A stretch of DNA of 64,000 nucleotides from Candidatus Poribacteria bacterium (GTDB lineage: Bacteria > Poribacteria > WGA-4E > WGA-3G). The position numbers were made by a program, and so were the translations under genes. The notes under the pieces are model-generated. The model was given only the letters and a program-made list of their open reading frames with translations. It did not search any database and was not told the DNA's origin. The stretch lies in contig OZ251518.1 in assembly GCA_965242965.1 (NCBI GenBank), positions 3,424,001 through 3,488,000 on the forward strand, read 5' to 3'. Positions 4,643-6,836 of the stretch are shown here, in pieces (the stretch's first letter is position 1; each line of letters opens with the position of its first letter).

Positions 4643-6064
4643 CTAAAAATGCCTGCGGCTCTTCGGACTTTCACACAACTCACACACCAATTGCTCCAGA
4701 ATGCAGGTTGCATCAAGTTGACTCGTTTTCAATTGCGTGTCCACTTCCAAGGTTTTTTCCAGCGCGGTCATGAGTTCCTCAACTTTGAAAGCGTGGAGCG
4801 TCTGAAAAATTTTGTAGGCGGCGTAGGGACGCTGCTTCAGAACGTTCGTATCGGCTGCTGTCGGGAGTAAATCCGCCATTTCTTGGGAGAGCGGTTTAAA
4901 AACGTCGCTGACAAACCTATCAAACTGCATCCTGCGTCCTATCTGGCTCCGGTTCGCTTTCTCGACAATGAGTTTCGCTTGCAGGGACAGGCGGAGTTGG
5001 CGGATAATCAGCGTGTTCACCTTAATATGCGGCTCACCGCTGGCCAGCACTTCGTGAAGGCTTTTTAACGCCTGCGCCACCGAACGCCGCCCGATGGCAT
5101 CGGTGAGGTGAAAAATGTTGTCAAACGTATTCTGCGTCACCATGTTCCGCACATCCTGTTCGTCAATCTGGTGTTTATCGCCGACAAAATTGACGATTTT
5201 GTTGATGGACTCGGCGATGGTGTGCATGTCACCGCCGGTGCGGGAACGGAGCTGCAGATAGGCGCGCGGGGTTATCTGCTTATCAAATGCCTCAAACTTC
5301 TCTACAACCTTTTTATACAGCGGGTCGCGGGGCGAAACGCCGCCACCTGCAGGCGCGCCAGAAAACGGTTGGAAGGAGACATAGCGTCCTACCTCTTGAA
5401 TCTTCTTGACGATGCGGTTCCGTTCGTTGACAACCCCTGGCACCGTTAACACTAACACGCTCGTCTTCGGAAGTTCGCTTTGCAGCCATTCAAACAGCAA
5501 TTCTGCATCGTCGGCAGCACCGGCATCCGCTGGAGAAACATCCACTTTCTCGGCAATTCGCGGCAGCCTCTCAAGGAACGCGCGCTCGTCTGCGGTTAAT
5601 TTATCACCAACCTCTTCAATTACTGCCTCAACAGCGTTTGTGAAATCAGCGTGGCGTTCGGCGATTTGTTGCGGTGTTACCCCTAGGCATTTCGTCACCG
5701 TGGTGATACACTTTCCGGCATCCTCGTTTTCTAGTTTGATGGCATCGCGAATGAGCGTTGTCGGCGTTGCACGCCGCTGCGTCTTGAAAACTGGCGAGTC
5801 GCGCACGACGACAACCCGCCAGTCCGACATAACAGGATAGAGGGACACCTGGCTCAGGATTTCCCGCGTTGTGACAGCGGTGCCATCAAGAAAGGAGAGG
5901 TTGAAATCGCGCGTGTCAGGCGTTAGCAGCGTATCTAACATCTGCTTGAGCGTCCCCTCGATGAGGAAACTCTCCTCGCCACAGAGCAGGTAGACAGGCT
6001 TTACCTTGTTTGATTGGATTTCGCGCAAAATATTGGGGGGTTTGTTTTCCGTTTTCTGTCTCAT
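4643..6064 (-). CDS. holA: DNA polymerase III subunit delta
   Basis: PVYLLCGEESFLI, DFNLSFLDG, NIFHLTDAIG and C-terminal D..LKTS..D...LEQL motifs; carries an extra internal helical segment. Confidence 0.85.
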   Translation of the reverse strand: MRQKTENKPPNILREIQSNKVKPVYLLCGEESFLIEGTLKQMLDTLLTPDTRDFNLSFLDGTAVTTREILSQVSLYPVMSDWRVVVVRDSPVFKTQRRATPTTLIRDAIKLENEDAGKCITTVTKCLGVTPQQIAERHADFTNAVEAVIEEVGDKLTADERAFLERLPRIAEKVDVSPADAGAADDAELLFEWLQSELPKTSVLVLTVPGVVNERNRIVKKIQEVGRYVSFQPFSGAPAGGGVSPRDPLYKKVVEKFEAFDKQITPRAYLQLRSRTGGDMHTIAESINKIVNFVGDKHQIDEQDVRNMVTQNTFDNIFHLTDAIGRRSVAQALKSLHEVLASGEPHIKVNTLIIRQLRLSLQAKLIVEKANRSQIGRRMQFDRFVSDVFKPLSQEMADLLPTAADTNVLKQRPYAAYKIFQTLHAFKVEELMTALEKTLEVDTQLKTSQLDATCILEQLVCELCESPKSRRHF

Positions 6065-6276
6065 TGCGGCAAACTGCCGCCACTAGGGAGGGCTCAGGTT
6101 GAGCCTTCCGTGGCAGCCTCCTTTTGGGTCCCCGCGGTTGCAAAAGCGGAGAAGCGTTTCTTTGGGTTTAGCGCGCCGCATCGCGGGCATTCAGGCGATG
6201 TGTCGGCATCACTGGCACGGCGCAGCATTTCAAACTGCGTTGTGCATGCGTAGCACTCGTATTCAAAAATTGGCAT
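6061..6276 (-). CDS. FmdB-family zinc-ribbon protein, probable selenoprotein (in-frame UGA at 6096-6094)
   Basis: MPIFEYEC..C...CPRCG. Conventional stop is TGA 6094; read-through adds U-ALPSGGSLPQ and ends in an ATGA overlap with holA. Confidence 0.8.
6066..6080 (-). promoter_or_regulatory. putative bacterial SECIS hairpin
   Basis: GCGGCA-GTT-TGCCGC stem-loop starting 13 nt after the UGA, with G at the start of the loop. Confidence 0.55.
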
Positions 6277-6392: not shown

Positions 6393-6836
6393 TTATGGCG
6401 AAGTCGGCGGCGGTTCATGAAAAGGGATACCGCCTGCCTCTGCCGTCATCCGCCGGGTGTTCCACTCTGCCCACACCCGGTCTCGCTCGGCAGCGACTTC
6501 CGCAGTGACTTCCGCAGTGACTTCCTTCACGATTTCCCTGATTTGTTTTTCCTGTTCCCTCTTGTAGAGGTTCCACAGTATCATAAGAACAGACCCTCCG
6601 AGTTCAAAAAACAGCGTTAAAACGAAAGCCACCGAAATAAATTCGGCAACATGGCCTACGATGGCGATTATCGTTTCAACAGAATTTTCCCTGCCTTTCG
6701 CGAGCTCATATTCGCCTACCATCCAGGTATAACTCGCTACCAACGCAAGGAAAAAAATAATATCCGCGAGAAACGTCCCCCGCATGAAACTGAATACAGG
6801 CACTCGTTTCTCTATCAGGTACCTATCTTTTTTCAT
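6393..6836 (-). CDS. hypothetical membrane protein
   Basis: Two TM segments, EVTA tandem 12-bp repeats, C-terminal W..WN.RR..AEA.G.PF.EPPP tail. Confidence 0.65.
   Translation of the reverse strand: MKKDRYLIEKRVPVFSFMRGTFLADIIFFLALVASYTWMVGEYELAKGRENSVETIIAIVGHVAEFISVAFVLTLFFELGGSVLMILWNLYKREQEKQIREIVKEVTAEVTAEVAAERDRVWAEWNTRRMTAEAGGIPFHEPPPTSP

Follow-up and report, generated by a model that had tools for sequence, protein, structure and literature searches.

A poribacterial FmdB-family zinc-ribbon gene next to holA probably encodes a selenoprotein with selenocysteine in its C-terminal tail

We analysed a 64,000-nucleotide stretch of the genome of a Candidatus Poribacteria bacterium (GenBank assembly GCA_965242965.1, contig OZ251518.1, positions 3,424,001 to 3,488,000; henceforth the window, in whose own coordinates positions are given below) with respect to a small zinc-ribbon gene of the FmdB family that lies directly upstream of holA, the gene for the DNA polymerase III delta subunit. 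The open reading frame (ORF) of this gene halts at a TGA. The best explanation as a whole, to which we assign a rough probability of 0.82, is that the UGA is decoded as selenocysteine (Sec) by the standard bacterial route of SelB and a selenocysteine insertion sequence (SECIS), and that the gene represents a branch of the FmdB family with Sec in the C-terminal tail. The initial annotation of the window had proposed a probable selenoprotein here, and this proposal is strongly supported by the invariance of the TGA, the coding constraint downstream of it, a covarying hairpin at a fixed distance from it, the Sec machinery found in the genome and the occurrence of similar SECIS-like elements in other selenoprotein genes of the same genome. 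Hence, the zinc-ribbon gene is very likely to be a real selenoprotein gene that has been cut short in the databases.

The elements concerned all lie on the minus strand of the window. The zinc-ribbon ORF (6276-6094) starts with an ATG at 6276-6274, 5 nt downstream of a Shine-Dalgarno (SD)-like GAGGA read directly from the sequence (6286-6282), and runs for 60 codons with two CxxC motifs up to a TGA (6096-6094) in the context GST-TGA, which would specify Sec as residue 61. After a spacer of 13 nt (6093-6081) there follows a SECIS-like hairpin, GCGGCA-GTT-TGCCGC (6080-6066; 5′ arm 6080-6075, loop 6074-6072, 3′ arm 6071-6066), the loop G of which is the 20th base after the TGA. Reading on past the TGA yields ten codons, ALPSGGSLPQ (6093-6064), the first three of which (Ala, Ile/Leu, Pro) are conserved as codons across orthologues, and then a second TGA (6063-6061) that overlaps the holA start codon as ATGA. 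Inspection of the sequence thus bears out what the initial annotation had described: an FmdB zinc-ribbon ORF halting at a UGA within GST*ALPSGG, a hairpin 13 nt past it with the loop G at +20 and a read-through stop overlapping the holA ATG.

The protein encoded by the ORF matches the Pfam domain Zn_ribbon_8 (PF09723; E 3e-12, 46.8 bits against a cut-off of 34.4) and the NCBIfam model TIGR02605 for the FmdB family (57 bits, the cut-off being 31.3), the latter over residues 1-50 only. The four cysteines of the two CxxC motifs (C8, C11, C30 and C33) are invariant, and both the profile and the motif signatures of the FmdB family are present. A dedicated selenoprotein model was sought in the NCBIfam scan of the protein, in which the domain model TIGR02605 was the sole match. 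All 32 database homologues recovered are 60-64 residues long, which indicates that gene callers stopped at the TGA; those that are named come from Candidatus Poribacteria. One relative (G004) carries two additional partial zinc-ribbon copies (C1:65223-65369 and 65613-65753) in tandem just upstream of its full gene (66188-66397); these match query residues 5-54 and are without the TGA tail.

Of 30 relatives whose holA loci we retrieved, 26 have the zinc-ribbon gene upstream of holA; in the family to which the window genome belongs (f1), the first stop of this gene is TGA in 26/26 loci. The read-through protein was also searched against 176 genomes of the phylum, giving matches in 153. TGA is likewise the first stop throughout (50/50) in a second set of loci, made up of the 30 best and of 20 that represent other families, other classes and a second branch at order level. 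Combined, TGA occupies this position in all 64 genomes examined at the DNA level (62/62 distinct sequences), with no orthologue among them showing TAA, TAG or a sense codon at the Sec position; orthologues with TAA or TAG and an unconserved tail, a pattern that would speak against a selenoprotein, were thus not found. As a control, the stop codon of holA in the same 30 loci varies (TAA in 15, TAG in 8, TGA in 7), and TGA is the least-used stop of the window genome, ending 655 of the 2544 frames of at least 300 codons. A lone strong match that seemed to be a TGA-free form (G076) was rejected as such, being a longer protein with a TGA further on; G077 is likewise.

The sequence downstream of the TGA bears the mark of translation. 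The per-position entropies of the first codon after it are 0.24/0.21/1.48 bits, corresponding to GCN (Ala), those of the second 1.17/0.21/1.46 bits, corresponding to [AC]TN (Ile/Leu), and those of the third 0.46/0.24/1.56 bits, corresponding to CCN (Pro). The Ala and Pro codons show all four bases in third position, and the period-3 signal is no weaker than in the codon preceding the TGA (0.91/0.40/1.31 bits). Conserved coding beyond the UGA, which one would expect of read-through, is thus seen as period-3 conservation over three codons. The length of the tail after the TGA differs from locus to locus, being 4 codons (e.g., L041, L084 and L093), 7, or 9-11; given these variable ends, the conserved core is U-A-[IL]-P.

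The hairpin of the window, with a GTT loop, a 6-bp stem, a UGA-to-loop distance of 19 nt and a free energy of -8.7 kcal/mol, falls within every bound of the consensus bacterial SECIS model given in the legend of Fig. 2 of PMC13188914 (a loop of 3-9 nt, a stem of 4-16 bp, a G within the first two positions of the loop, a UGA-to-loop distance of 16-37 nt and a minimum free energy (MFE) of at most -7.5 kcal/mol), in agreement with the fit that the initial annotation had perceived. In an alignment of the 62 distinct sequences, each of the three core pairs is formed in 61; the hairpin pair 30-38, for instance, is GC in 33, AU in 16 and GU in 11. Covariation yields a score of 0.340 as compared with 0.195 for column shuffles, none of 500 of which reach 0.340, and this score lies above that of every slid register. 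RNAalifold, run on the full 74-column alignment, predicts only the three core pairs. Distant orthologues have unlike stems at the same place (GAACC/GGTTC, TTACGTC/GACGTAA, GAAGC/GCTTC and AGGACG/CGTCCT); the loop almost always contains G-T. Many orthologues, above all those of genus g5, have a perfect stem of just 4 bp, beneath which lies a mismatch. The spacing between TGA and hairpin is kept even where an in-frame stop follows after 4 codons (L041, L042, L044, L084, L085, L093, L096 and L098), as is expected of a SECIS and not of a purely coding constraint. Comparable hairpins follow 11 of 655 TGA, 25 of 1005 TAA and 37 of 884 TAG stops of frames of at least 300 codons in the window genome; with such a chance level of 1.7-4.2%, a single hairpin is only suggestive, and it is the comparative data that make it significant.

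The genome encodes a tRNA-Sec (78 bits, anticodon tca) that directly adjoins selB (331 bits), along with selA (577 bits) and selD (358 bits), the last with a single in-frame TGA of its own. The complete set selA/selB/selC/selD is therefore present, which disposes of the most direct objection to a selenoprotein, namely a genome without Sec machinery. Correlating the presence of the zinc-ribbon gene with that of the machinery across the phylum proved uninformative because selA is nearly universal there (164/176 genomes, 130/133 of the high-quality ones). At least eight further genes belong to recognised selenoprotein families and have one in-frame TGA each: five AhpC/TSA genes (C1:1012994-1013365, 2583978-2584349, 2583528-2583899, 1196679-1197050 and 112533-112919), an Rdx gene (C1:1879810-1880025), an Fdh-alpha gene (C1:5502012-5504024) and selD itself (C1:58854-59813). 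Two of the five AhpC/TSA genes stand in tandem. Six of these eight have hairpins of 6-7 bp with G-rich loops of 3-5 nt at 14-22 nt after the TGA. That of Rdx (CAGCCA-GTT-TGGCTG, loop at +22) has a GTT loop flanked by CA/TG, exactly as in the window hairpin; the others are those of AhpC1 (GCAACTC-GGC-GAGTTGC, +21), AhpC4 (GCAGCTC-GGT-GAGTTGC, +21), selD (GGCTCC-GGG-GGAGCT, +17), FdhA (a 7-bp stem, +18) and AhpC5 (a 6-bp stem, +14). The two exceptions are AhpC2 and AhpC3, for which the perfect-stem search gave only weak or displaced hairpins.

Beyond the Poribacteria, a profile search against 1.84 billion representative proteins returned 18,191 matches at E <= 0.001, and many tails of the FmdB family end in C-x-x-G-G-F-[ST] or carry C-A-P-x-G-G. 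We collected 80 FmdB loci from other phyla (L100-L179), in which ORFs ending in F[STGRN] have a TGA stop in 17/17 cases, followed by a strong hairpin in 16 of the 17 (-4.7 to -16.1 kcal/mol). Over all 80 loci a SECIS-like hairpin follows 27 of 45 TGA stops as against 2 of 34 TAA/TAG stops, and the frames past the TGA are only a few codons long, often with Ala first. In this set, FmdB genes with Cys-rich ends of the CGCH- or MCGMN-type lack a hairpin and stop variously at TAA, TAG or TGA. The group with Sec in the tail seems to be large and spread over many phyla. Its members resemble the poribacterial genes in that C-x-x-G-G-F-[ST] is followed by a TGA at the equivalent place, often by Ala and then by a SECIS-like hairpin with its loop 16-25 nt after the TGA. 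They also share a Cys 6-7 residues before the Sec with the poribacterial families f2 and f3, the C-[DQ]-T-G-S-T-U-A-[IL]-P of which lines up with the C-G-S-G-G-F-T-U-A of other phyla; on the strength of this line-up the poribacterial Sec can be read as homologous to their tail Sec. The genes of other phyla differ in having only 1-2 residues after the Sec, in contrast to the poribacterial tail of 4-11 with its conserved A-[IL]-P, and family f1, including the window gene, has lost the upstream Cys and has its SECIS abutting holA. Together, these comparisons indicate that the poribacterial genes are a phylum-wide branch of a wider, uncatalogued group of predicted tail-Sec proteins in the FmdB family.

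Selenoproteins of the FmdB family have been predicted before, with two sequences from Global Ocean Sampling (GOS) reads (Zhang and Gladyshev 2008, PMC2398784), and in the published cases Sec replaces a zinc-binding Cys, as CxxU and later as U/CxxU or UxxU (PMC2398784, PMC9312934 and PMC13188914). The window gene shares with the GOS-type proteins the family (TIGR02605 / COG2331 zinc ribbon), a predicted Sec encoded by UGA and a bacterial SECIS directly downstream; it differs in keeping all four zinc-binding cysteines and in having its lone TGA in the tail, at codon 61, some 27 residues beyond the second CxxC. Since the passages on the published proteins place Sec inside the CxxC, the tail position is a different one. 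The statement in the initial annotation that FmdB selenoproteins are known therefore stands as far as their existence goes, with the qualification that the Sec of those described in these passages lies in the zinc motif and not in the tail. The passages concerned in PMC2398784, PMC9312934 and PMC13188914 describe no tail-Sec FmdB protein, and the terms 'zinc ribbon', 'FmdB' and 'Poribacteria' gave no match in the main texts of the deep-Sep (PMC12013277) and BSepDB (PMC13326102) papers. Going by titles and the openings of abstracts, the literature on Poribacteria and selenocysteine apparently holds nothing about the zinc-ribbon gene. Literature searches on selenoproteins among FmdB or zinc-ribbon proteins likewise brought up no tail-Sec member of the family. 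What appears new, as far as these sources extend, is the predicted tail position of Sec in the FmdB family; the bacterial recoding mechanism and predicted FmdB selenoproteins with Sec in the CxxC are already known.

Several observations weigh against this interpretation. The orthologues are interrelated, so that the TGA counts overstate their independence, and the coding constraint can be scored for three codons after the TGA only, as those further on overlap the hairpin. In many orthologues the hairpin is weak: a perfect stem of -7.5 kcal/mol or lower is found in just 4 of the 62 sequences, the 48 nt from the TGA onwards have an MFE of that value or lower in 34/62, and a strict search finds no qualifying perfect-stem hairpin in 5/62. 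Moreover, no orthologue with Cys at the Sec position occurs among the matches listed from the 176 phylum genomes, so that the exchange of UGA for Cys envisaged by the initial annotation is not seen and the classical evidence of a Sec/Cys pair is not cleanly available. The assertion that homologues often have Cys at this place likewise does not clearly hold. In the wider family, Cys stands in the Sec column in 59 of 81 aligned matches, in an alignment biased by a profile that itself held C there; with that column masked, it stands in 13 of 49 aligned matches and in the next column in 15. Independently of alignment, of 37 A/G-(I/L/V)-P-x-G motifs 14 are preceded by Cys, versus a Cys background of 6.5%. 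We accordingly downgraded a pairing of C-A-P-x-G-G with U-A-[IL]-P-x-G-G, given that the control with the masked profile weakened it and that the equivalent end in relatives is a TGA; the alignment of Sec with a tail Cys is probably an artefact, and the better counterpart is the TGA in the FmdB genes of other phyla.

One alternative is that the TGA is an ordinary stop, with the block downstream of it a non-coding RNA element such as a hairpin for mRNA stability or processing or a protein-binding site in the 3′ untranslated region. This would accord with the database gene calls, which halt there, with the apparent end of wider-family proteins at the equivalent place, and with a hairpin that is short and weak in many orthologues and of a kind that 1.7-4.2% of ordinary stops possess. 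However, it leaves unexplained why the least-used stop should be the exclusive one here while that of holA drifts, why GCN-[AC]TN-CCN should be conserved with a period of three and all four bases at the Ala and Pro third positions, why the hairpin should match those of most other selenoprotein genes of the genome in type and spacing, and why TGA should be associated with such hairpins in other phyla (27/45 vs 2/34); we regard an ordinary stop as very improbable. A read-through of the UGA by near-cognate Trp or Cys decoding, stimulated by the downstream hairpin, would likewise account for the coding conservation and the conserved structure, and no Cys orthologue among the matches listed anchors the identity of the residue. 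Yet the genome has the full Sec machinery, both the spacing and the loop, which begins with G followed by U, are those of a SelB-binding SECIS, and a gene that wanted Trp or Cys should show some sense codons, which none of the 64 genomes does; such decoding appears exceedingly improbable. We hence favour decoding as Sec, and infer both that Sec is actually inserted and that it serves as a working residue of the tail, in redox chemistry or in the handling of chalcogens or metals.

Under Sec decoding, a ribosome positioned at the UGA (6096-6094) would have the hairpin (6080-6066) just outside it, where it would recruit SelB with Sec-tRNA(Sec), allowing the UGA to be decoded as selenocysteine. 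The product would be a protein of 71 residues comprising the four-Cys zinc ribbon and a flexible tail, Sec-Ala-Leu-Pro-Ser-Gly-Gly-Ser-Leu-Pro-Gln. A parallel is offered by mammalian thioredoxin reductase, which bears Sec on a flexible C-terminal tail as Gly-Cys-Sec-Gly. The two are alike in that Sec sits near the C-terminus, in an unstructured stretch extending from a folded domain; they differ in that there is no sequence relationship between them and that family f1 has no neighbouring Cys for a selenenylsulfide.

In family f1, the start of holA would have been placed directly behind the SECIS. In the window, holA (4643-6064, minus strand) encodes a protein of 473 residues (PF06144 and PF21694), and a single A (6065) separates the hairpin from its ATG (6064-6062). 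The hairpin covers positions -16 to -2 of holA, with the AUG itself outside the stem, and none of AAGG, AGGA, GGAG or GAGG is seen by eye in the 20 nt before the ATG; hence, the initial annotation had correctly noted that the hairpin sits in the holA initiation region and that holA has no visible SD. In bacterial operons an overlapping stop and start of the form ATGA can couple the translation of two genes by termination and reinitiation. The window resembles such pairs in the ATGA by which the read-through frame closes on the holA start, and in the lack of an SD-like motif before holA; it differs in that only a ribosome that has already decoded the UGA as Sec meets the overlap, the first UGA being 29 nt upstream. 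From the geometry of the ribosome, one halted at the first UGA should not quite touch the stem, its leading edge falling a few bases before it. Such a ribosome would leave the hairpin folded, whereas one reading through would have to melt it, would terminate on the holA AUG and would probably help holA to initiate. This help would be a secondary, lineage-specific consequence of read-through and not the reason for the conserved signal.

The distribution of the gene arrangement bears on how far such coupling can extend. The zinc-ribbon gene and holA are adjacent only in family f1; in f2-f4 a long stretch of chromosome separates them, and the TGA, the tail and the hairpin persist away from holA. 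Among 48 f1 genomes, 25 have the holA ATG 29-30 nt after the TGA (14 with ATGA overlaps, 3 with one-base overlaps and the rest with a TAG ahead of the ATG, by 5 nt in 5 genomes and by 15 nt in 3), 18 have a spacer of 43-1166 nt between the two genes, 4 have no zinc-ribbon gene near holA, and in 1 holA is outside the locus. A genome of the same genus as that of the window (G002) has no zinc-ribbon match anywhere and retains holA behind an A-rich leader. Judged by eye, an SD-like 4-mer in the 20 nt upstream of holA occurs in 0/25 of the abutting cases; among the 17 separated holA genes whose ATG is resolved, AAGGA is present in 8 and the other 9 show no SD-like motif, so that a missing SD is not diagnostic in f1. 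Together, the non-adjacency in f2-f4, the spacers within f1, the presence of holA without the gene in G002 and the frequent lack of an SD argue that the conserved block, a predicted recoding signal, belongs to the zinc-ribbon gene and not to holA. Thus, holA is best seen as a neighbour and not a component of the selenoprotein unit, possibly with translational coupling in the lineage of the window; as a general feature such coupling is not supported, the arrangement being lineage-specific, and in the window genome it would plausibly be a side effect of read-through.

The initial annotation had gone further, proposing that Sec insertion melts the hairpin and thereby licenses translation of holA. 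The anatomy of the window suits this idea, for the hairpin covers the holA initiation region from -16 to -2 and the read-through stop overlaps the ATG; moreover, in all 25 abutting f1 genomes a read-through ribosome would halt on or just behind the hairpin, and the lack of an SD-like 4-mer in all of these stands against AAGGA in 8 of the 17 separated cases. The broader part of the claim is not sustained, since adjacency is confined to f1, 18 of 48 genomes there have spaced genes, a further 4 have no zinc-ribbon gene near holA and G002 lacks the gene, while 9 of the 17 separated holA genes also do without an SD-like motif. In addition, the AUG is outside the stem, the stem is only 6 bp long and is followed by an A-rich unstructured stretch, and dependence of an essential replication protein on a trace element would be costly. 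We therefore consider it unlikely that melting of the hairpin by Sec insertion is required for holA initiation, such that the selenium supply licenses synthesis of the clamp-loader delta subunit. Decidedly unlikely is the more elaborate scheme in which the SECIS doubles as a mask of the holA start in the window genome and about half of f1, with Sec-inserting ribosomes alone opening it and reinitiating on holA, so as to tune the delta subunit and replication to the selenium supply. A literature search found no description of a SECIS doubling as a mask of a downstream start.

The surroundings of the gene pair show some further features. In genus g5, inserts of 149-1166 nt lie between the two genes (L029, L032, L033, L035, L038, L040, L055, L056, L060, L062, L068, L070, L072, L075 and L078); their ends beside holA are of two recurring types, one with AAAGGAAA and the other with AAAAGATTCTA, and the inserts may represent an additional gene or small elements, mobile or repeated. 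The Pfam N-terminal domain of the window HolA lies at residues 25-94 and the C-terminal one at 315-385, leaving a long middle segment between them. This segment would seem to be variable, for in family f4 the holA match falls into two parts, residues 1-109 and 180-470. An ORF of 147 codons (6393-6836, minus strand) situated upstream of the zinc-ribbon gene encodes a protein without a Pfam match that has hydrophobic stretches and a short tandem VTAE repeat; the C-terminal end of this ORF is conserved in G002, from which the zinc-ribbon gene is gone.

We know of no function established for the FmdB/COG2331 zinc-ribbon family, large as it is. A Sec codon that is present throughout a phylum and recurs in others marks the C-terminal tail as a working part of these proteins, and points to redox or to chalcogen or metal chemistry. 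The finding also means that database entries for the poribacterial group are cut short, with 32/32 homologues ending at the TGA. Methods needing Cys homologues would miss tail-Sec FmdB genes, and the deep-Sep paper names the need for such homologues as a limitation of its own approach (PMC12013277). Finally, should the holA link prove true, a recoding signal would here control the essential gene next to it, an uncommon arrangement.

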